Source: Sulfuritalea sp. (GTDB lineage Bacteria > Pseudomonadota > Gammaproteobacteria > Burkholderiales > Rhodocyclaceae). From it: DNA of 64,000 nt. A model generated the notes under the pieces. The model did not search any database. It was given only the letters and a program-made list of their open reading frames with translations, and was not told the DNA's origin. Each line of letters starts with the position of its first letter. Position 1 is the stretch's first letter. The position numbers and the translations under genes were made by a program. Positions 2,914 to 48,372 of this stretch are shown here, one piece after another. Location of the stretch: the NCBI GenBank assembly GCA_016708585.1, contig JADJFK010000014.1:53600-117599 (forward strand). Reading direction: 5' to 3'.

Positions 2914-3114
2914 TCAGGCGGCTTCGAGTTCGAGTGCTTCGATTTGCGTGGTGGCCTCGTAGAGCATACGGACGGCCCCATCACCTTGTCGGACATGCGC
3001 CCAATGGCTCTGTCCGGCTGCAAAAATCTTGATGATCTGGCCACCGCCTGTCAGTGCGCCTTCCGACGTCATGACCCGAAACCGGACATGGTCGTTGATA
3101 CGAAACTGCGGCAT
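2914..3114 (-). CDS. Hypothetical small protein (66 aa)
   Basis: A strong SD (AAGGAGGAAGC) lies immediately before the ATG. No family recognised. Confidence 0.5.
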   Translation of the reverse strand: MPQFRINDHVRFRVMTSEGALTGGGQIIKIFAAGQSHWAHVRQGDGAVRMLYEATTQIEALELEAA

Positions 3115-3230
3115 GCTTCCTCCTTGCGGCGAGTAATACCCAGCTATTATTCGCCGAGGTCAGGCAGGAATGCGCAGCAAATAGCCGGCTGAATCGGGGT
3201 GTATTTCGGGTTAAGCCGGAACCGTCTCAG

Positions 3231-3485
3231 CTTGAACCTGCGATCCCAATCTCTCAGCAATGAGGTCGGTATGCTGCGATTCAACAGCGATTCATTCAGC
3301 CACCTCAACAAAACCCCATAGTCAAAAGAATGCTGACGGAAGCGTAATTTCCTGGTCACCTTCCTGTTGGTATCGGGCTCCTAAGATGGCATCACCGTCG
3401 GACGAGACATACCCGATGGAATCAACCCACCTCACAAGGAGAAGACCATGAAAACGAAATTTTCCCAACTTGCCTTGATCGCTGC
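3231..3485. repeat. Copy A of a ~255-bp inverted duplication (promoter/leader plus first signal-peptide codons)
   Basis: The reverse complement aligns with 48829..49083 at roughly 90 percent identity by eye. Similarity stops abruptly at CTTGAACCTG (3231) and fades about 35 nt into the coding region. Confidence 0.8.
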
Positions 3486-3837
3486 GATCGGCCTCGCTAC
3501 CGCTGGAACGAGCTACGCTCACGAAGATTATTCCGAAGCCGGCACCTACCATTGGCTGAGCCACGTTTCGGAAAGCCAGGGCGCTCCGACGGCCAATCAA
3601 CTGGCACCGTTCGGCTACGCCGCCACGAAAAATGCCGACCGCGAGGTCAGCCTGCCCGGCGGCAGCAAGTATCTGTACGTGACTCGACTGGAAACCGTCA
3701 AGATCAATGTCGGTGGCAAGAGCGTCGTCTGGACCTTCGATACACTCGGTGCCGCACCGTTTCCGCTCTCCAAGATCGTACCGGGAGCCGACGGCATCAC
3801 CGTTTATGTGACTGAGAACCCCGCCTCCCTGGGCTGA
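3448..3837 (+). CDS. CzcE-like periplasmic metal-binding protein
   Basis: Signal peptide MKTKFSQLALIAAIGLATAGTSYA. The mature part (KYLYVTRLETVKINVGGKSVVWTFDTL ... ITVYVTENP) resembles the CzcE family as I recall it. SD AAGGAGAAG. Confidence 0.6.
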   Translation: MKTKFSQLALIAAIGLATAGTSYAHEDYSEAGTYHWLSHVSESQGAPTANQLAPFGYAATKNADREVSLPGGSKYLYVTRLETVKINVGGKSVVWTFDTLGAAPFPLSKIVPGADGITVYVTENPASLG

Positions 3838-3942
3838 ACAACCTGACTGCGGGGTGACGGAATTGTCACCCGGCAGAAGAGGAGCTGTCAGGATCAACAC
3901 CCTAGTATTCACAATGCAGTACAACTTCTTTAGGAGATTGAA

Positions 3943-4230
3943 ATGATGAAAAAAATGCTGATGGTTGCCCTGATGAGCGCGGTCTCGGTGACTGCCTTCG
4001 CATTCGATGCGGCTCGTGAAGCGGCAAAGCAGGTCGTTGAGTTGAAGGATGGCTCGACGGTCTACATCTTCAAGGATGGGAAAATGGGCATGGAAGACAA
4101 GTACGGTCGTCCCACCCGCATGAAGAAGGACACCGTGATGGAAACCAAGGATGGCCAGAAGATCATCATGCACGGCGACGAAGTCATGCGCCTCGACGGC
4201 CTGTTGAAGCAAGGTCACCAGGGTGGTTGA
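3943..4230 (+). CDS. copK: CopK periplasmic copper-binding protein
   Basis: The mature sequence KDGSTVYIFKDGKMGMEDKYGRPTRMKKDTVMETKDGQKIIMHGDEVMRLDGLLKQGHQGG closely matches Cupriavidus CopK, including Met26/28/38/44/54 and His70 positions. Confidence 0.85.
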   Translation: MMKKMLMVALMSAVSVTAFAFDAAREAAKQVVELKDGSTVYIFKDGKMGMEDKYGRPTRMKKDTVMETKDGQKIIMHGDEVMRLDGLLKQGHQGG

Positions 4231-4239
4231 TTTCCCATG

Positions 4240-5547
4240 TCACCTGAATGCGGCGGCTCCTTCGGGGGCCGTTTTCATTTTGAAGCACCGTTCAAGCATC
4301 ACCTTCAATTCCAGTATCCATTGGGCGTGATCTCTGGACAGGCCTTGCTCGTATAGCATCGGAGCAATCTGTCGGAAGACGGCATAGATCGCCGGGTCGA
4401 AATGCTGCCCAGCTTCCCGTTCCATGATGCGCAGCGTCTCGTCCAATGACAAAGCCGGTTTGTAGGGACGAACGGAGGTCAATGCATCGAACACGTCGAC
4501 CAGGGCAAAGATTCTTGCGGCAAGCGGGATCGCCTCTCCCGAAAGTCCGTCTGGATAGCCTTTCCCGTCAAAGCGTTCGTGATGATGCCGGATGGTCTTC
4601 TCGGCACCGCCCAGCCAGGGATTGCCAGCGACAATCTCGATGCCCAGCACTGCGTGGGTCTGCATGACCTGGAGTTCTTCGCTGGTCAGCCGTCCCGGTT
4701 TCAGCAAAATTTGGTCCGGAATACCGATTTTTCCAACGTCGTGGAGAAAGGCGCCCAGCACCAGTTCGGTAACGGTTTCCTTGTCGACGCCCACCGCTTC
4801 GGCAAGTGAGACCGCATAGCAGGTAACCCGGTAGTTATGGGCGTCTGTGTCCGCGTCACGCTTGGCGATGGCATTTCCGAGAGATCGCAGCAGTGAGAGA
4901 TTGGAGTCCAGGAGTCGAGACGACAATGCCACCGTACGCCCCAGCAATCCTGACATCAGTGGATAGAGCAGCAGTGCCGCGGCGAGTACCGAAATCGTGG
5001 CTGTTAGCGCAGCCCCACGAGTCCGAAGTTTTCTCTCATGCAAGGCTGATTGGGAAACCAGGCTGATCCCCTCAACATAGCCCACAAGACGGCCATCATT
5101 CGTGGTCATCGGCAGAATGACCTGGACCAGTTCTTCTCCTGCCACGGAGATTCGCTTGCTATGGCTATTGGGCGGGATTGGCCATCGATGGCGCTGTTGT
5201 CGGGCAAACTCTTTCAATGTTTCGGGCAGTGGTCGCCAGACATCGAACAGCATCTCGGCGTTGGGTGCAAAAACTCGAATCCCGACAAACTCGTCGGTCA
5301 GCAACTGCGAAATCGCGGAATGACCATCTCCTTCCTCACCGTTGACCGCCAACTGCATCGCAGGCGACTCGAAATGCCTGACCCCCGTAATGGCGCGCTC
5401 AAGAGTACGCTGCTCGACGCGATACGATTCGACCCAGTAGGCAAGACCTCCCGCGAGACTGCCAACCAGAAGCGCACCGATGCCAAAGCGTCGTGCCAAC
5501 ATGTGGCGCAATTGCCGGGGAGTTTCAGGAAGCTCGAAGGTTCTCAT
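4240..5547 (-). CDS. Membrane-bound HD-GYP domain protein (putative c-di-GMP phosphodiesterase) with periplasmic sensor region
   Basis: Motifs HDVGKIGIP and HHERFDGKGYPDGL. Two TM segments (aa ~21-39 and ~178-202) flank about 138 aa. Confidence 0.85.
   Translation of the reverse strand: MRTFELPETPRQLRHMLARRFGIGALLVGSLAGGLAYWVESYRVEQRTLERAITGVRHFESPAMQLAVNGEEGDGHSAISQLLTDEFVGIRVFAPNAEMLFDVWRPLPETLKEFARQQRHRWPIPPNSHSKRISVAGEELVQVILPMTTNDGRLVGYVEGISLVSQSALHERKLRTRGAALTATISVLAAALLLYPLMSGLLGRTVALSSRLLDSNLSLLRSLGNAIAKRDADTDAHNYRVTCYAVSLAEAVGVDKETVTELVLGAFLHDVGKIGIPDQILLKPGRLTSEELQVMQTHAVLGIEIVAGNPWLGGAEKTIRHHHERFDGKGYPDGLSGEAIPLAARIFALVDVFDALTSVRPYKPALSLDETLRIMEREAGQHFDPAIYAVFRQIAPMLYEQGLSRDHAQWILELKVMLERCFKMKTAPEGAAAFR
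4254..4280 (+). terminator. Intrinsic terminator for copK (overlaps the 3' end of the convergent HD-GYP gene)
   Basis: A 7-bp GC-rich stem (cggctcc/ggggccg, loop ttcg) is followed by TTTTCATTTT. Confidence 0.5.
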
Positions 5548-6182
5548 CTCAAATTCTGCATAAGTTCCATGAAGTGTTTGAAATGCCCGCTGACGCGATC
5601 CAGGGAAAATTGGTACATCAGCGAATTTTCAGAAAATTTCTGTCGCTCGGCATCTATATCCACCGTATGGCCATCGGCTGCGGCTTGATACGGCACATGG
5701 TGCTTCAGCGGGAATGATGGTGCCTGCGTTCCCCTTGACAGATAGCCATTAGCGGTAGTTGCCAACGATAGCAATGCCGCCGCGCTCTTGACGACTTGGG
5801 CGGCCTCATTGATGTCGATATCGACCGCCTTGTAGCCAGGCATATCGGCATTGGCGATATTCAAGGCCAGAAGTTGCTGCCGATACGCTCGAACCCCAAG
5901 CATTTTCTGCTGAAAATCATGGCCGGCATGACCACCTTGCCCGATTGAGAGGTGGTTGGGATGGGCGGATGACGCGCTGGAGGCCGTCCCGGCAACTTGT
6001 CCGCCGTGAGCGGCGTGGCTGCCTTCGGGACTATTGGCCTTTTGAGCAATCGCCTGATTCAATGCTTGGAAAAATGCCCCGTTGTCGGCGTTGACCGGCG
6101 CCCCTCCATGCCCCTCATGACCGCCTTCAACTGAAGATAAAGGGGTGTTGGCAGCTGGGGAAATGGACGGAACTCCTGCCAT
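5544..6182 (-). CDS. FlgB-like flagellar rod-family protein with 93-aa His/Gly-rich N-terminal extension
   Basis: Residues 94-212 match FlgB hallmarks (LLALNIANADMPGYKAVDIDI; DGHTVDIDAERQKFSENSLMYQFSL). The stop overlaps the HD-GYP start. An alternative start is Met94 at 5903. Neither start has a clear SD. Confidence 0.75.
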   Translation of the reverse strand: MAGVPSISPAANTPLSSVEGGHEGHGGAPVNADNGAFFQALNQAIAQKANSPEGSHAAHGGQVAGTASSASSAHPNHLSIGQGGHAGHDFQQKMLGVRAYRQQLLALNIANADMPGYKAVDIDINEAAQVVKSAAALLSLATTANGYLSRGTQAPSFPLKHHVPYQAAADGHTVDIDAERQKFSENSLMYQFSLDRVSGHFKHFMELMQNLR

Positions 6183-6190
6183 GACGGCGA

Positions 6191-6433
6191 CTACGCGTTC
6201 ATGATCAGGATGGCCTTCACTGGATCAATTTTGCCGACGTCATGCCATTTAAATTCGTTGTCCGCAGCAACTGGCGCAGCTAGGCAACCGTGATTGCATT
6301 CGACAATCCAATGCTTCCGGAGCACTGTCCGGCAGTAGTTGTAGCTCAGCATCTTCGGGTCACAGCCAACCGCGAGCGCTAGTGTGCGACACACACATCG
6401 ATCGCCGTGCTCTGCCGGTTTGCGGATGTCCAT
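6191..6433 (-). CDS. Hypothetical Cys-rich small protein (80 aa)
   Basis: MDIRKPAEHGDRCVCRTLALAVGCDPK... contains 6 Cys. The ORF ends 8 nt before the FlgB-like start. No SD and no family recognised, and the longer 6191..6685 version overlaps the neighbouring gene. Confidence 0.35.
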   Translation of the reverse strand: MDIRKPAEHGDRCVCRTLALAVGCDPKMLSYNYCRTVLRKHWIVECNHGCLAAPVAADNEFKWHDVGKIDPVKAILIMNA

Positions 6434-6491
6434 GGCTGAAATGATGAGGCCCCGATTTCGCGGCCCCGATTTCGGGGCCTTTACTGGACGC

Positions 6492-6740
6492 TTACTTTCC
6501 ATCTCGCGGATGGTAGTGCCTGCTCCTGTCGGTGGCTGGGTTGGGCTTAACGGCCTTCGGGTCCGGCATGCTTTGCGGGATACCGGTCTTCTCCTGAACA
6601 TGAGAGTGCGGCCTGGCAGCCGCGTTGTCAGTCTGTGCTTCGGCAGCTTTCGGGGCTGTGGCCTTGTCATCAGCGTAGACGACACCCGCCGTGGCTGCTC
6701 CAGCGAACAGAACGGCGGCGATGAGGGAAGAGGTTTTCAT
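6492..6740 (-). CDS. Small secreted His-containing protein (82 aa)
   Basis: ATG 6740 with AGGAG 8 nt upstream. Signal peptide MKTSSLIAAVLFAGAATAGVVYA. The mature part is low-complexity with HSH and HYH. Confidence 0.6.
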   Translation of the reverse strand: MKTSSLIAAVLFAGAATAGVVYADDKATAPKAAEAQTDNAAARPHSHVQEKTGIPQSMPDPKAVKPNPATDRSRHYHPRDGK

Positions 6741-6834
6741 GATCGTGGCTCCTGAGTTTGGGGATTTCAACGGGCCGAATCGAGTGGACAGTTGCAGTTT
6801 GTGCTTCCGTCACTGTCAACAAGGTGACTTGCCG

Positions 6835-6850
6835 ATTACATTTCGTTGCT
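6835..6850. promoter_or_regulatory. Candidate response-regulator half-box (GATTACATTT family)
   Basis: ATTACATTTCGTTGCT lies 95 nt upstream of the 6740 start. It is adjacent to a TTGACA on the minus strand. Confidence 0.3.
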
Positions 6851-7078
6851 GTCAGGAAGCGCGGCTGAATGCGGATTCACCAAATGCCCGACTGCCTCCG
6901 CAAGCGCATCAGGCAATTGCCATTCGCAACACCCCATCAGAATTCCGTCCCCAACGCATCCTGGGCCACCTGGCGAAGTTCATCCAGGTTCTCGTTGAGC
7001 ACCTTGATTTTTCCGTACAGGCAATGAGCTTCCCGGATGAGTCTTGCCAACGCACCGGCCTTGACGACATCATCAAGT

Positions 7079-7381
7079 TCACTTTGCCGAATGTCGGGCC
7101 AGCGTCTGCAAAACTTGGTGCTGGTATTCCAAACTGTCGAGGGTGCATGCCTTCCAATACTCGATGGATGAAAAGCCGACGGCAGCCCACCATGCCCCTG
7201 TTTGCCCAGGCTCACCCAGAGAAAACGACGGTGTTCGCTCAAGGAGTTCCTTGAGCGGGGAAAACTGCGTGGAAACCATATTTTCCAGACAGTCGAGATT
7301 CACGCCAACCAACCGGGCGACCAAATCCAAATGGAGGTCGGGGGGTGCATTGAAGATAGCGAACGAATTGTGTGCGGACAT
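7079..7381 (-). CDS. Phasin-like hypothetical protein, possibly frameshifted (C-terminal part may continue to 6937 in another frame)
   Basis: SD GGGAGAG lies 4 nt before the ATG. The N-terminus FAIFNAPPDLHLDLVARLVGVNLDCLENMV has phasin-like periodicity. ORF 6937..7242 encodes a helical C-terminus (LYGKIKVLNENLDELRQVAQDAL). Confidence 0.4.
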   Translation of the reverse strand: MSAHNSFAIFNAPPDLHLDLVARLVGVNLDCLENMVSTQFSPLKELLERTPSFSLGEPGQTGAWWAAVGFSSIEYWKACTLDSLEYQHQVLQTLARHSAK

Positions 7382-7489
7382 GATTCTCTCCCTGCGGCAC
7401 GATCAAGGCCCATTGCCTTGTAGGGAGAGTTTGCCGGTGGGTGGTTGTCGCACCCATAACGGGTGCATTACAACCCAATCACCACTGCG

Positions 7490-7840
7490 TCAGCTTGTTG
7501 TCGTGCTGATCGCAGCGAGTATTACCTCTTGCGTCTGGGCGCTTAGCCCGAGAAAGACTTGTTGCCTCCGCCTCTCAAATTCGGCTGCGGAAACCCGCCA
7601 CTGTGGGTCATGAGGGCAGTTCAGTTTGTCAGCGACAATCCGACGCACATAAGCCTGCGCGGACGCCTTGCCCCGCGCAAGTCGCAACAAATCCGCCAAT
7701 GCCAAATCGAAGGCATCGCGATGATGGTCTTTCAATCCGGTGGTGAACACCACAAGAATGGCAACCGCATCCTCAAACGGTCGCAATGAATCGTCTTCTT
7801 CGGACAATTTTTTTCCCTGATAGTGCCTTGTTCGAACCAT
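7490..7840 (-). CDS. Hypothetical protein (116 aa), last gene of the cus operon
   Basis: The ATG lies 3 nt after the cytochrome c stop (TAGCGGATG). No family recognised. Confidence 0.5.
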   Translation of the reverse strand: MVRTRHYQGKKLSEEDDSLRPFEDAVAILVVFTTGLKDHHRDAFDLALADLLRLARGKASAQAYVRRIVADKLNCPHDPQWRVSAAEFERRRQQVFLGLSAQTQEVILAAISTTTS

Positions 7841-7843
7841 CCG

Positions 7844-8233
7844 CTATTGGATGCCAACCATCCGCTGCTCAGCCCGCACATAGGCGGTGACGTGGGCGAC
7901 GTCGTCCGCCGTTACCCCTTTCACAGGGGCCATGTCGCCAAATTTCCAGTGATGAGCCCGCACCCCGTTGGCCACGGCCAACTGGAATGCCGCATCGGCA
8001 TGATGGGACGGCTCATAAATCTTGTGCAGCAGGGGCGGTCCCTTTTCCGATCCCTTCAAGTCGCCGCCATGACAGCCCGCACAGTGATTGGCGAACAGCG
8101 CCTTGCCCGTGCCGGGATTGGGCATTAGGCCGGGGCCGGGTTTGGGAATGCTCCAGCCTTGAGCCAGAGCAAGGCTTGGCAGCATCGCCACAAGAAGCGA
8201 TGCCGGAATCCAAAACAAACACTTGTGCCTCAT
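7844..8233 (-). CDS. Monohaem c-type cytochrome, translationally coupled to cusA
   Basis: The start at 8233 overlaps the cusA stop (ATGA). Signal peptide MRHKCLFWIPASLLVAMLPSLALA. Haem motif CAGCH. Confidence 0.75.
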   Translation of the reverse strand: MRHKCLFWIPASLLVAMLPSLALAQGWSIPKPGPGLMPNPGTGKALFANHCAGCHGGDLKGSEKGPPLLHKIYEPSHHADAAFQLAVANGVRAHHWKFGDMAPVKGVTADDVAHVTAYVRAEQRMVGIQ

Positions 8234-15168: not shown

Positions 15169-15238
15169 GGCGAGGCTCCTGTTTGAATCGAGTGGCGTCA
15201 GTATGGATAGCCAATGCCAACAATTAGCTGTCTCGTGG

Positions 15239-33529: not shown

Positions 33530-34549
33530 TCAGAGCGTCCGCAGGAAGTCGATCAGCGAGTCGGGTGCCCGATAGCGACGAAGCTTGGTCTCTGGCTCTT
33601 GGAGCCGGGCCAGCGCCCGTTCCTTCATGGCCAGATCGGCCTCGACGTATTGGTGCGTCGTTGCCGGACTCTCATGGCCAAGCCAAAGCGCAATGACGCT
33701 GATATCGACGCCGGCCTGCAGCAGGTGCATTGCCGTCGTGTGGCGAATCACATGCGGCGAGATGTGGCGTGTTGCCAACTCAGGGCAGGATTCTGTGGCA
33801 ACCTGGACGGCGCGATCCAGTCGCTGCATCACGTTCCATCGCGACATTGCTTGGCCATCGCGATTGTGCAGCAGTGGCGAGTCGGAATCGAACTGCGGAT
33901 TTCGTTTGATCCAGGCCCGGATTGCCCTGATGGTTGAACGCCACAGTGGCACGCTGCGCTGCTTGCGTCCCTTGCCGTGCAGATGAACGCAGGCGGCCCC
34001 ATCGTCGAGCACCACCTCGCCGACCTTCACGCCGACGATCTCTGAAACCCGCGCACCGGTGTTGTAGAGCAACAGCAGCAACACATGATCCCGTTGGCTG
34101 AACCATGTTCCATCCGGCGTGCCGATCACAGCGAGCATTTCTTCCCGGGACAGATAGCCAAGCATCGGCCGCTCGAAGCGCTTTGCCGGAACGCCGAGCG
34201 CGTGCTCGATCACCTGCAGCGATGTCACGTCGCGGTGCGCCGCGAACTTCAGGAACGAACGCAGCGCCGCGAGACGGCCATTCCGGCTGCGCACGCTGTT
34301 GTGCCGCTTGCGTTCCAGATGATCGAGGAAGGCCGTGATCAGGTCCGGCGTGATGTCGGCCAGCGTGATCAGCGCTGGCGAACGGCCAAGTCGCACCTCG
34401 GCAAAGCCCAGGAAGAGCACGAAGGCATCCCGGTAGGCGGCAACCGTCTGTGGACTGAGTGCGCGTTGTTGCGTCAGGTGCTCAACGAAGAAGGCTTGCA
34501 CGAGTGCGGGAAACGATGGCGCTGGTTTGGGTTGTCTACGCATCATCAT
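33530..34549 (-). CDS. ritC: Tyrosine recombinase, third of trio
   Basis: HVIRHTTAMHLLQAGVDISVIALWLGHESPATTHQYV. The stop abuts the left inverted repeat. Confidence 0.85.
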   Translation of the reverse strand: MMMRRQPKPAPSFPALVQAFFVEHLTQQRALSPQTVAAYRDAFVLFLGFAEVRLGRSPALITLADITPDLITAFLDHLERKRHNSVRSRNGRLAALRSFLKFAAHRDVTSLQVIEHALGVPAKRFERPMLGYLSREEMLAVIGTPDGTWFSQRDHVLLLLLYNTGARVSEIVGVKVGEVVLDDGAACVHLHGKGRKQRSVPLWRSTIRAIRAWIKRNPQFDSDSPLLHNRDGQAMSRWNVMQRLDRAVQVATESCPELATRHISPHVIRHTTAMHLLQAGVDISVIALWLGHESPATTHQYVEADLAMKERALARLQEPETKLRRYRAPDSLIDFLRTL

Positions 34550-35510
34550 CTCCCGCGAGATCGGCGAATTGCTCGAACCGGCTGGCAGCGATTGCCATCA
34601 ACTCGGGAACGGCGGTGAGGTACCAGTACGTGTAGAAGATCTCGGCATGCCCCATATAGGTCGACAGCGCCAGCATCTTCTGGTCAACATCAGCACCGTC
34701 GGCGTACCAGCGCACCAGCCGCCGCACAGCGAAGGTGTGGCGCAGGTCGTGCAGGCGCGGGGCATCGTGTCCACCGCGATTGACCCAGCCAAGACCGTCG
34801 CGCAGGCTGGTAAAGACGCGGTGCGCCTGTCGCTCGCCGAGTGGTAGCCCCAGTCGGCAACCGCGACTGCCGATCAGGAACGGCATGCCCGTCGTCATCG
34901 GAAGATGCCGCTCACGTTGTTTCCGGTAGCGCACCAGCGCCTTGACCGTGCTGGGATGGATCGGAAGTTGCCGGGACTTGGCGAACTTGGTCTGCCGGAT
35001 CGTCAGCATTCCGCGTTTGAGGTCGACATCAGTATCGCGCAGGTGAATGGCTTCGGAAACGCGCAATCCGGTCGAGGCCATCAGGCCGAACAGGGTTTCG
35101 TAGGTGAATGGCCGAAGACTGCCGGATGGGCCGAGTGTGCGTGCCGCCGCGAGCAAGTCGACGACCTCATCGTCACGGTAAATGTGGGGTGCCACGCGAC
35201 CGGGTTCCGGGCCGAAGAGCGATGCCTCAGAAATCTCAGTGTCCGGCTCAAACTGCCGCAGGTAGCAGATGAAGTGTCGCAGCCGTCCCCAACTGCGCGC
35301 CCAGGTGCCCACATCGCCATGGCCATCCTTGCCGGCACGTACCCATTCGACCATGAGTTCCGCAGTCAGCGGACCGTGATGGCCCTTTGTCTCCACGAAG
35401 CGTGCAAAACCGGAGAGGAAGGTGTCACGGGAGCGCAGGTGGAAACCCTGGCGGCGACGCTCAGCCAGATAGTCGTCGATTCTGGCCTGCAGGCTTTGGC
35501 GCCGGCTCAT
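34536..35510 (-). CDS. ritB: Tyrosine recombinase, second of trio
   Basis: LHDLRHTFAVRRL...LSTYMGHAEIFYTYWYL. It overlaps both neighbours. Confidence 0.85.
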   Translation of the reverse strand: MSRRQSLQARIDDYLAERRRQGFHLRSRDTFLSGFARFVETKGHHGPLTAELMVEWVRAGKDGHGDVGTWARSWGRLRHFICYLRQFEPDTEISEASLFGPEPGRVAPHIYRDDEVVDLLAAARTLGPSGSLRPFTYETLFGLMASTGLRVSEAIHLRDTDVDLKRGMLTIRQTKFAKSRQLPIHPSTVKALVRYRKQRERHLPMTTGMPFLIGSRGCRLGLPLGERQAHRVFTSLRDGLGWVNRGGHDAPRLHDLRHTFAVRRLVRWYADGADVDQKMLALSTYMGHAEIFYTYWYLTAVPELMAIAASRFEQFADLAGDDDA

Positions 35511-36490
35511 GATTCGCTCCCCGGCCAGGGCAACGGAACCCCGGCGAGATTTGGTGTGTCGAGCTTGGCGTAGATCCGAGTGGTTTCCAGAGACCGGTGC
35601 CGCAAGACATCGGCAACTTCCTTGAGTGAACTGCCGTTCCCGACCAGGCGACAGGCCAGCGTGTGACGCAGCAGGTGCGAACCGGAATCGGGAAGGCCAG
35701 CCCGTCGGCAGGCACGGCGGATTACGTTCTCAACCGCATAAGTTGTGATCGGGATGTCACGCGATTCGCGGCGGCACAGAAAGAGTGCCCTGCTTGGGTT
35801 TGCCAGGCGCTCATGCTGCAGGTAGTCTGCCAATGCTTGTCCGGTCGCCATCGGCAACGGCAGGATGTCCTGCCGTCGCGACTTTGTGCCCTTCAGGGTG
35901 ACCGTACCTTCGCGCCAGTCAATGGCGTCGATCGACAGGTTCGCGATCTCGCCAGCGCGCAGCCCCATGTCCAGCGCACAGCGGACGATGGCATAGCCAC
36001 GCCGGGGCTTTCGTCCGTAAGGGAGTGCAGCAAGCAGCCGTTGAACCTCGTCCGGCTTGAGAGCGCGTGGCAGCGATGCAAGCTTCCACTGCACCGGCGA
36101 GGAAATCGCCGCGCTCAGCCGGACAACCGAATCACCGCAGACGGTCCGGTAGCGGAGGTAACTTCGCAAGGCTGTCGCGACTTGAGCGGCAGCCGAATGC
36201 GATGGGCTATCCCCCAGTTGCCGAGCGATAAAGCGGCGAACGTCGGCTGCACGTAGCTTGGCCATGTTGACGACGCCACCGGCGAACTTCTTTCCCAACA
36301 ACTGCGCGACGATGCGGCAATGGTTGCGACGCGTGCCTGCCGCAAGGCCGCGTACGTCACGTAGGTGGTCGTCGTACCGGTGCAGTTCGTCGGCGATGGG
36401 GTCGGGGATTTCTGCAGAAGAGCGCACATGCTGCGCGCTCCGGGGCGGTGAGATTCGGTTCATGAGCGTCTCCTTGAGTGGAAACTCCAC
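35507..36490 (-). CDS. ritA: Tyrosine recombinase, first of trio
   Basis: SHLLRHTLACRLVGNGSSLKEVADVLRHRSLETTRIYAKLD. Confidence 0.85.
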   Translation of the reverse strand: MEFPLKETLMNRISPPRSAQHVRSSAEIPDPIADELHRYDDHLRDVRGLAAGTRRNHCRIVAQLLGKKFAGGVVNMAKLRAADVRRFIARQLGDSPSHSAAAQVATALRSYLRYRTVCGDSVVRLSAAISSPVQWKLASLPRALKPDEVQRLLAALPYGRKPRRGYAIVRCALDMGLRAGEIANLSIDAIDWREGTVTLKGTKSRRQDILPLPMATGQALADYLQHERLANPSRALFLCRRESRDIPITTYAVENVIRRACRRAGLPDSGSHLLRHTLACRLVGNGSSLKEVADVLRHRSLETTRIYAKLDTPNLAGVPLPWPGSES

Positions 36491-46090: not shown

Positions 46091-46232
46091 GACTGCCGGG
46101 AAGAAAGAAGCAGGTATAGGCGACGGCCCGCGACTTCCTGACGATTTCGAGTATGAGTTTCCACAGCGTTCGCTCCTGTTCGACGATGAGTGAATTCTGC
46201 GCAACTCCACCTAACGGCATGCTGACCTTCAG

Positions 46233-46248: not shown

Positions 46249-46309
46249 CTTGGAAGATTGCCTAAGTTGCCGGCGCAGAATGGCGCAAATCGCAACACGG
46301 GAGATGCAC

Positions 46310-46987
46310 ATGAAAATTCTGGTGGTCGAAGACGAAATCAAAACCGGGGATTACCTGCGACAAGGCCTGACCGAGGCCGGGTTCGTTGTCGACCTGGCGC
46401 GTGATGGCCTTGATGGGTTGCATCTCGCTCAGACCGATGCCTATGACCTGGCGATACTGGATGTCATGCTGCCCGGTATCGACGGCTGGGCGGTGCTACA
46501 GGGCATTCGCAGGGCCGGCAAGGACATGCCGGTATTGTTCCTGACGGCCCGCGATCAGGTACAGGATCGTGTGCACGGCCTGGAGTTAGGGGCGGACGAT
46601 TACATGGTGAAGCCCTTCGCTTTCGCCGAACTGTTGGCGCGCGTGCGTATCCATCTGCGGCGCGGCAGCAAGGCGAAGGAGTCCGAGTATCTGCGCGCAG
46701 CCGATCTGGAACTCGACCTGATGCGGCGGCGCGTCACCCGCGCCGGCAGGCGAATCGACCTGACGGTGAAGGAGTTCGCTCTGCTCGAATTGCTGTTGCG
46801 ACGGCAGGGCGAAGTGCTGCCGCGCTCGCTGATCGCCTCTCAGGTCTGGGACATGAACTTCGATAGTGACACCAACGTTATCGAGGTGGCGATCAAGCGT
46901 TTGCGGCTCAAGATCGACGAAGACTTCGAACTCAAGCTGATCCGCACCGTTCGTGGAATGGGGTATGTGTTGGAGATCGCCGAGTGA
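46310..46987 (+). CDS. Heavy-metal response regulator (CusR/CopR/CzcR, OmpR family)
   Basis: [25 protein letters not shown]...[15 protein letters not shown]...winged-helix C-terminus [11 protein letters not shown]. Confidence 0.9.
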
Positions 46988-48372
46988 AATCAGCCGGACG
47001 CAAATCCATCGTTTTCCGCCTGACGCTGCTATTCGCTTCGGCATCGACCGCCGTCCTGCTTGTGCTTGGGCTTTTGATCGGCAATTCAGTCGAGCACCAT
47101 TTCGAAGTGCAGGACATGGAGGTACTGACCGGCAAACTGGAACTGACCCGGCACGCGCTGGAAAAGGTTCGTTCGCAAAGCGACCTAGATGCTTTGCCTC
47201 AGCAACTGGATGACTCCCTGGTGGGGCATCATGGCTTGGCGGTCATTGTGGTTGCGCCTTCAGGACAAACCCTGTTTGTTACCAGTGGTGCCGAGTTTCC
47301 ACAGGTCTTGCTTGCGCGAAGCGCTGATATGACCAACTCGCGTCCGATCATCTGGAAATCGAAGGATCGCATACCGCTGCGCGGGATTTCGGCGATGGTC
47401 AATACCGGCATCGAGGGGGCGAAACCTGCCATTGTTGCCGTAGCGACGGACATATCCATGCACGAACACTTCATGAGTTCGTTTCGATTCACATTATGGT
47501 CTGTCGTGATTCTGGCTGCACTCATCACCGGATTTCTCGGCTGGATGGCTGTCAGACGCGGGTTGGCGCCATTGCACGCGATCAAGCTGGAGGCAGCGGC
47601 CATTACAGCGGATCGCCTGTACTCCAGGTTGCCTACCGAATCGATCCCGATCGAACTGGTGGATCTTGCCGAGACTCTGAACCAGATGCTGGCCCGTCTG
47701 GAGGATTCTTTCCGGCGGTTGTCGGATTTCTCCTCGGATATTGCCCACGAACTGCGAACGCCGGTCAGCAATCTGCTGACGCAGACCCAAGTCATGCTTT
47801 TGCGTGCCAGGACGATTGACGAATATCAGGATGTACTTGCGTCAAACGCGGAGGAACTGGAGCGCATGGCGAAAATGATCGCCGACATGCTGTTCCTCGC
47901 CAAGGCCGACAATGACCTCGTGGTACCAAATTTCGAGGCCGTTGATCTTCGGGCAGAGGTGGAAGGACTGGCCTCTTTCTACGAGGCTGTCGCCGAGGAA
48001 AACAGCGTTACTCTGACTGTAGACGGGAGCGCCACTGTAACCGGAGACCGGTTGATGTTGCGTAGAGCCATCGGCAACTTGCTGTCGAATGCCTTTGGGC
48101 ATACCCCCCGAGGAGGTTACGTAAGAATTCAGATCGGCAAGAATGAAGACCGAATGGCAACGATCCAGGTTGAAAACTCCGGCGAGACGATCTCGCCAGA
48201 ACATCTGCCGCGTCTCTTTGACCGTTTCTACCGGGCAGACCCCTCAAGGAAACGTCTTGCCGACGGAGTTGGTCTGGGGCTGGCGATCACACGCTCGATC
48301 ATTCAAGCGCATGGAGGATCCGTATCAGTTCAGTCGGCCGACGGGGTCACCATATTTAAGCTGCAAATGTAG
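46984..48372 (+). CDS. Heavy-metal sensor histidine kinase (CusS/CopS/CzcS family)
   Basis: Overlaps the regulator stop. Two TM segments, HAMP, H-box [13 protein letters not shown] and G boxes. Confidence 0.9.

Follow-up and report, generated by a model that had tools for sequence, protein, structure and literature searches.

A FlgB-like protein with a histidine-rich N-extension, encoded next to a membrane HD-GYP protein in a conserved accessory operon found in copper/silver-resistance islands

A stretch of 64,000 nucleotides of Sulfuritalea sp. (GenBank assembly GCA_016708585.1, contig JADJFK010000014.1, positions 53,600 to 117,599 of the forward strand), hereafter referred to as the window, carries a minus-strand operon of four genes encoding a secreted protein (‘sec’), a Cys-rich protein, a FlgB-like protein, and a membrane HD-GYP protein. 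The neighbors of the operon include cusCBA and genes for cytochrome c, CopK, CzcE, and P-type ATPases. Its constant neighbors are the CzcE-like gene and CopK, the latter being transcribed toward the operon and found at most related loci. The four open reading frames described in an earlier note, which was made from the sequence alone, all exist as described: the stop codon of the FlgB-like gene overlaps the start codon of the HD-GYP gene (ATGA), the Cys-rich reading frame stops 8 nt before the FlgB-like ATG, and the guanine-cytosine content of the block (0.53–0.59 across 3000–8000) is lower than that of the flanks (0.60–0.66). The absence of other flagellar genes from the window, also stated in that note, was confirmed by tblastn with FlgC, FlgD, FlgE, FlgF, and FlgG, which gave no match. 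The cassette is an accessory operon that has been conserved in the copper/silver-resistance islands of Rhodocyclales-type and related Betaproteobacteria, and its FlgB-like product is a genuine member of the FlgB family encoded outside any flagellar cluster.

Membership in the FlgB family is evident from the NCBIfam model TIGR01396, which the FlgB-like protein matches with 80.3 bits (E = 1.4e-22) against a curated cut-off of 59.05, residues 89–206 of the protein being aligned with model positions 6–128 of 131. Solved structures of Salmonella FlgB (7bin and others) match with E = 5.6e-22 (residues 89–209 versus 10–135 of 138). The earlier note had equated residues ~94–212 with the whole of FlgB; the family assignment holds, whereas the first ~9 canonical residues are unmatched. 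Similarly, the family assignments of both coupled products are borne out by TIGR01396 and, for the HD-GYP protein, by PF13487, whereas PF00460 (Flg_bb_rod) alone scores 13.9 bits on the FlgB-like protein in hmmscan, below the threshold of 20.7. The motif LNIANADMPGYKA is present in the FlgB-like protein, and a precomputed PF00460 match is found on most homologs. The core was further compared column by column between 23 orphan FlgBs, i.e., 20 relatives from a genome scan, one from plasmid pMOL30, one from a Janthinobacterium plasmid, and the window protein, and 60 canonical FlgBs. The 12-residue rod motif and DGNTVxMDxER are equally invariant in both groups, and the orphans keep the rod helices and, for the most part, the segment corresponding to residues 9–18. 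In Salmonella FlgB, every substitution of Phe45 impaired secretion, and a hydrophobic patch of FlhB recognizes this residue (PMC9307174). Phe occupies position 45 in 60/60 canonical FlgBs, whereas the orphans have Ile in 10, Phe in 7, Val in 4, and Leu in 2, so that 16 of the 23 carry Ile, Val, or Leu. His72, in the 58–82 insertion of FlgB, contacts the FliF collar (bioRxiv 10.1101/2020.12.05.413195), and its equivalent is kept in 18 of the 23 orphans and in 59 of the 60 canonical proteins. The consensus of the last ~20 residues of the orphans differs from that of canonical FlgB, and the orphans have signature residues in common (Y21, K86, K108, M115, F118, and D121-R122).

The core is preceded by a His/Gly-rich N-extension in which three GH-type motifs had been claimed; His/Gly-rich motifs are present, but they comprise four HxxH repeats (HEGH, HAAH, HPNH, and HAGH). 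The extension aligns across full-length homologs, with a conserved F-x-x-A-L-x-Q-A-I helix motif (F37/F38...L41), and the ratio of nonsynonymous to synonymous substitution rates (dN/dS) between close ortholog pairs is 0.12–0.22 in the extension and 0.05–0.26 in the core. Because of the dN/dS of the extension, Met1, and not Met94, is the real start; the extension is thus, judging from comparative sequence data, translated and under purifying selection. No Pfam or NCBIfam family matches the extension, even at E<=10, and it is probably disordered. In rod subunits, the N-terminal helix lies on the rod exterior (bioRxiv 10.1101/2020.12.05.413195), and therefore the extension would not necessarily lie in the channel. 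F37xxxL41 was considered as a replacement for the relaxed Phe45 gate motif; there is no anticorrelation, relatives bearing Phe45 also having the motif, and such a replacement is at most an idea.

The conservation of the cassette was determined in two sets of loci. In the genome set, one genome per species was scanned, yielding 80 FlgB relatives; the metagenome set was seeded on the Cys-rich protein and yielded 80 loci, 61 of which were long enough to judge. The arrangement (sec, Cys-rich, FlgB-like, HD-GYP, and convergent CopK/CzcE) recurs in 9 genome and 61 metagenome loci. Loci L001–L008, from Azonexus, Dechloromonas, Sulfuritalea, Thiobacillus, Zoogloea, and others, contain the same four-gene block, flanked at one end by cusCBA and a cytochrome c gene and at the opposite end by convergent CopK and CzcE; protein identities fall to 43–56%. 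The chromosome of Denitratisoma oestradiolicum has the same six genes in another wider context; this organism and Azonexus caeni are the cultured carriers among the nine genome loci. Conservation of the FlgB-like/HD-GYP pair, which the earlier note had left to database searches, is accordingly found in the 9 genome loci and in 53 of the 61 metagenome cassettes, which keep both genes. An ATGA or a 1–25 nt junction separates the two genes in most loci, and ~156 clusters of full-length FlgB-like homologs exist. This recurrence in genome and metagenome loci indicates a module under selection for linkage.

Within the cassette the members differ in constancy. The HD-GYP gene is kept in 61/61 metagenome loci, each time linked to the Cys-rich protein; the FlgB-like core is intact in 53 of the 61, and the FlgB-like gene is the least constant member. 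In L124 and L127–L130 the Cys-rich gene is directly followed by the HD-GYP gene, without a FlgB-like gene, and L100, L102, and L103 have truncated FlgB-like genes. Gene order is Cys-rich, FlgB-like, HD-GYP in 47 loci and FlgB-like, Cys-rich, HD-GYP in six, and L134 has the order FlgB-like, sec, Cys-rich, HD-GYP. In L006 (8168–9408) and L004, the sec and FlgB-like genes are separated by an insertion encoding a YHS/TRASH-type protein and a lipoprotein, and in this branch the Cys-rich gene has moved between the FlgB-like and HD-GYP genes.

The HD-GYP protein matches PF13487 (HD_5) with E = 6.8e-40, the HD-GYP domain occupying residues 224–387. The HD, H, HHE, and D ligands and the GYP motif all align with those of PmGH (4mcw), with D replacing the first Glu, and a Foldseek comparison of the AlphaFold2 (AF2) model matches the fold of 4mcw (E = 1.8e-14) and also 4r8z and 9rbz. 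The protein is thus predicted to be a catalytically intact cyclic-dinucleotide phosphodiesterase. Two transmembrane helices enclosing a periplasmic region, as the earlier note described, are found as hydrophobic segments at residues ~21–40 and ~176–204, leaving a periplasmic domain of ~41–175. In the AF2 model, which has a mean predicted local distance difference test score (pLDDT) of 78 and 84–92 in the periplasmic part, this domain has an alpha/beta fold and is bounded by two long helices; it contains conserved His at ~58, 75, and 128. It has no Pfam or NCBIfam match, even at E<=10, and by Foldseek it weakly resembles the sensor domains of LuxQ, WalK, and CitA (E = 0.02–0.1, template-modeling score 0.45–0.5), which weakly suggests a PAS/PDC-like sensor in the model. 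The N-terminal sensor domain is confined to its own family of 28 database proteins. Public gene calls often start the protein at Met64 (372 aa), losing the first transmembrane helix; because conservation begins at residue 1 in all loci by tblastn, the 435-residue form is the real one, and an independent Denitratisoma call is full length. PmGH (4mcw), PA4781 (4r8z), and DvhD (9rbz/9rc0/9rc2) share the fold and metal ligands with the window protein, and DvhD also joins a periplasmic domain to its HD-GYP domain; the window protein is distinguished from all three by its family-specific sensor domain, its location in a copper island, and its coupling to a FlgB paralog.

The two small proteins encoded upstream are rich in potential metal ligands. 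The secreted His-containing protein, regarded as well supported in the earlier note, indeed shows a signal peptide, and its gene has a good Shine-Dalgarno sequence. Its conserved motifs are KPHSHxxEKTGxP and KHYHPRDxK, and its identity is 38–78% in L001–L008 and L013. No Pfam or NCBIfam family was found for it, even at E<=10, and an assignment as a CzcJ/CopQ-type protein was rejected on comparison. The Cys-rich protein has an invariant Cys4His2 set (H9, C13, C15, C34, C46, and H48) and its family comprises 96 clusters at the 50% identity level, which contain only short proteins; the broad alignment of this family was too diverse for the locus scan, and a closer alignment was used instead. It has no known domain in Pfam or NCBIfam, even at E<=10, its family profile gave only chance-level matches among Protein Data Bank sequences, and its AF2 model is poor (pLDDT 57.7).

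The operon is preceded by a box of the type used by heavy-metal response regulators. The earlier note had reported a box shared with other metal-gene promoters, and the sequence GATTACATTT does occur exactly at 6834, 15238, 39475, and 46232, all of them intergenic; the shared similarity around the copies spans ~45 nt (AAATGTAATC-N5-GTCAG...GTTGG). The copies at 15238, 39475, and 46232 precede a DUF411 gene, a P-type ATPase region, and a divergent promoter of heavy-metal two-component and resistance-nodulation-division genes, respectively. The presence of the box at several metal-gene promoters suggests one regulon. In relatives, CTGACA-N4-TGTAAT followed by TTGAC(A/G) lies ~95–104 nt before the sec ATG (8/8 genome and 49/65 metagenome loci), and its position and sequence are conserved down to ~40% protein identity. 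We take this conserved box to be a putative CopR/CusR-type site. A heavy-metal two-component pair in the window (TIGR01387, 345.8 bits; TIGR01386, 500.2 bits) is itself preceded by this box, at 46232, and is a candidate regulator of it. A simple scan for promoters and terminators gave nothing above chance.

FlgB genes outside flagellar clusters are not confined to this cassette. Among the 80 FlgB relatives of the genome set, 60 have flgCDEFG immediately downstream and 20 do not, and no flgC–G gene lies within 10 kb in the 22 orphan loci related to that of the window. All 23 orphans are outside flagellar clusters and mostly adjoin metal-resistance genes; those without an HD-GYP gene stand after czcCBA-CDF (cation diffusion facilitator), before P-type ATPases (Achromobacter, Duganella, and pMOL30), or before two-component systems. 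The orphans group together in a neighbor-joining tree, apart from canonical FlgBs, with a bootstrap of only 23/100; their common signature residues speak for this grouping, and the nine HD-GYP-linked FlgB-like proteins are not monophyletic. A solitary full-length FlgB-like gene occurs among unrelated housekeeping genes on the chromosome of Dechloromonas sp. ARDL1 (L084, 6001–6642); its HxxH motifs have degenerated (GGHEGHGG to SEQELQGD) and its core is kept, and a further copy is found on a plasmid of the same strain (L010), after czcCBA-CDF.

Orphans are already known from plasmid pMOL30 of Cupriavidus metallidurans CH34. Genes named flgB have been annotated there in the czc region, in a flgB-czcP operon (Rmet_5971), and near mmrQ, with the function stated as unknown (PMC9045368; PMC11647585), and flgB of pMOL30 is up-regulated by a metal mix (PMC11647585). 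The CH34 chromid also carries a canonical flgBCDEFG cluster. The pMOL30 protein (Rmet_5971) resembles the window protein in being a FlgB-family member in a metal region outside flagellar clusters, with 33% identity in the core, and falls on the same side of the neighbor-joining tree (bootstrap 23/100). It differs in having 140 residues, a short N-extension without HxxH repeats, and Phe at position 45, and its gene precedes that of a PIB4 ATPase instead of an HD-GYP gene and lacks the Cys-rich and sec partners. Canonical FlgB (Salmonella 7bin/7cgo) shares with the window protein the two terminal helices, the 12-residue motif, DGxTVxxDxER, the 58–82 insertion, and the region equivalent to the secretion-needed residues 9–18. 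By contrast, in the window protein flgCDEFG do not adjoin, a 93-residue His-rich extension stands in place of the first ~9 residues, the C-terminal 20 residues are distinct, and Phe45 and His72 are replaced by Ile and Tyr. The earlier note knew of no description of a rod-family protein paired with HD-GYP; no paper on this pairing or on the cassette was found, although orphan flgB genes in metal islands had already been annotated. The His-rich, HD-GYP-coupled cassette therefore appears undescribed.

Table 1. Operon, regulatory elements, and metal-related neighbors in the window (positions are those of the window; aa, amino acids)
Feature	Positions	Strand	Properties and evidence
Secreted protein ‘sec’	6492..6740	-	82 aa; signal peptide, good Shine-Dalgarno
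Cys-rich protein	6191..6433	-	80 aa, cytoplasmic; probably a metal-binding site
FlgB-like protein	5544..6182	-	212 aa; TIGR01396
N-extension of FlgB-like protein, residues 1-93	5904..6182	-	Alignment of homologs, dN/dS
FlgB core of FlgB-like protein, residues 94-212	5544..5903	-	TIGR01396, Salmonella FlgB, 60-sequence column comparison
Membrane HD-GYP protein	4240..5547	-	435 aa; PF13487 HD_5
CopK, periplasmic copper-binding	3943..4230	+	PF11525 1.4e-30; NF033793 138 bits
CzcE-like periplasmic metal-binding protein	3448..3837	+	PF16986 2.5e-20
Heavy-metal response-regulator-type box	6835..6854	-	TGACA-N9-TGTAAT; 10-mer shared with three intergenic sites
-35-like hexamer TTGACA	6814-6819		15 nt downstream of box
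Heavy-metal two-component system	46250..48372	+	Response regulator 46250-46987, sensor kinase 46984-48372

The features are listed in Table 1. Two conserved hypothetical genes on the minus strand (7079–7381 and 7490–7840, encoding 100 and 116 aa) lie between the operon promoter and the gene for cytochrome c; their products have no Pfam or NCBIfam family. The former is conserved to ~30% identity and has the same end point in distant loci; a frameshifted gene at 6937–7381 was rejected because distant orthologs of the 100-residue frame end at the same place. Elsewhere in the window, phage-like genes (tail-fiber-, holin-, and lysozyme-like by appearance) at 8–2900 and a nucleoside 2-deoxyribosyltransferase gene (PF05014) at 2286–2903 abut the metal island, three tandem tyrosine recombinase genes in a recombinase-in-trio-like arrangement lie between metal-resistance blocks at 33530–36490 on the minus strand, and conjugative transfer genes occupy ~50–62 kb. 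A megablast search of 3400–7900 against plasmids gave no match.

These data lead to the following proposal for the function of the cassette. Copper stress would switch the operon on through the heavy-metal two-component system of the island. The HD-GYP protein would sense a periplasmic cue, possibly with sec as co-sensor and the Cys-rich protein as cytoplasmic partner, and would then lower the level of cyclic diguanosine monophosphate (c-di-GMP). The FlgB paralog would act on the flagellar export gate or basal body of the host, as an inhibitor or as an alternative proximal-rod subunit, since its rod-type helices are kept, as is the FliF-contact loop in most relatives; its HxxH repeats would make its behavior metal-dependent. 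Motility and sessility would thus be retuned together as copper rises. The whole proposal of a copper-triggered output on c-di-GMP and on the flagellar machinery is advanced tentatively, as a possibility that falls somewhat short of even chances.

Several observations weigh against this proposal. The equivalent of Phe45 in the window protein is Ile124, Tyr stands at the position of His72, and the canonical FlgB N-terminus is replaced by the extension. The FlgB-like and HD-GYP proteins are not obligate partners because each occurs without the other, and the FlgB-like gene is absent from 5 and truncated in 3 of the 61 metagenome cassettes. In the window, the box has a spacer of N9 and not N4, owing to a 5-nt insertion (CGAAA) that is also present in L087 and L088 and is confined to the lineage of the window, and the regulation of this copy is therefore uncertain and may be weakened. 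The HD-GYP protein also matches the 3′3′-cyclic GMP-AMP phosphodiesterase 5z7c (126 bits), which leaves the choice of nucleotide substrate uncertain. A proteome study of CH34 did not detect FlgB (PMC11647595), and the link of any orphan FlgB to flagella is one that we infer from sequence.

A stronger form of the proposal can be drawn from engineered proteins. FlgE-short variants are dominant-negative early subunits that stall at FlhB (PMC10936197). Like the FlgB-like protein, they belong to the rod/hook family and have altered N-terminal signals, and the FlgB-like protein could in the same way dock at the gate and block export; however, those variants are laboratory constructs, and for the window protein the parallel is drawn by inference only, the FlhB-docking Phe itself being altered. 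In this form, the His-rich FlgB paralog would be a natural copper-induced effector of the export gate that docks like an early rod subunit, stalls or caps the FliE/FlgB layer, stops new flagella, and perhaps seals an ion-leaky channel, while the HD-GYP protein resets c-di-GMP, the whole being a metal-gated switch borne by a mobile element. We regard this specific form as a long shot.

Among the rival explanations, the one that survives best is that the FlgB fold was co-opted for metal handling and has no flagellar role. The HxxH extension would bind cytoplasmic Cu, Zn, or Ni as a buffer, chaperone, or sensor for the adjacent pumps, the core would be an oligomerizing scaffold, and the HD-GYP protein would act independently. 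The varied metal determinants that adjoin orphans (HD-GYP, P-type ATPase, CDF, and two-component genes) agree with this explanation, as do the four conserved HxxH motifs, the relaxation of Phe45 together with the loss of the canonical N-terminus, and the signature residues particular to the orphans. However, the rod motifs and the FliF-contact loop are as invariant as in true rod proteins, a constancy that would be difficult to account for if the partners had changed; moreover, few His occur in the extension of the CDF-linked and Achromobacter subclades, and the His motifs of the solitary Dechloromonas copy were lost while its core was kept. Co-option is thus unlikely, but a contender to be taken seriously. 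Alternatively, the FlgB-like protein could be a regulatory partner of the HD-GYP protein, docking for example on the GYP surface or the cytoplasmic helices and tuning the phosphodiesterase to cytoplasmic metal, with no flagellar interaction. The tight junction of the two genes in most loci (ATGA or 1–25 nt) and the retention of both in 53/61 cassettes would fit such a partnership. By contrast, five cassettes have no FlgB-like gene, the Cys-rich gene stands between the two in six, orphan FlgBs exist without any HD-GYP, and the invariable linkage to HD-GYP (61/61) belongs to the Cys-rich protein; a dedicated regulator of this kind is accordingly rather improbable. Finally, that the FlgB-like gene is the stranded and decaying remnant of a former flagellar cluster, or resembles flgB by chance, as the lack of flagellar genes nearby and the truncated copies in some cassettes might suggest, is very improbable in view of a TIGR01396 score above the curated cut-off, the dN/dS of 0.05–0.26 in the core and 0.12–0.22 in the extension, the ~156 full-length homolog clusters, and the same neighbors kept down to 43–49% identity in several genera, and the decaying-remnant version, which the earlier note had named beforehand as the counter-reading, is ruled out by the selection and conservation data.

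Irrespective of the proposed action on flagella, orphan flgB genes have long been unexplained in pMOL30, the best-studied metal-resistance plasmid, and the pMOL30-type orphans now belong to a wider set of paralogs carried by metal islands. One orphan branch is locked into a box-driven cassette with an HD-GYP protein and two uncharacterized, metal-ligand-rich proteins, whereby an annotation oddity becomes testable, and experiments can draw on cultured carriers (Azonexus caeni KACC 11481, Denitratisoma oestradiolicum, and C. metallidurans CH34). If the proposal of a copper-triggered flagellar and c-di-GMP output is true, action on the export apparatus would be a new route by which a mobile resistance island controls the motility of its host, and copper would be a new input into c-di-GMP signaling.

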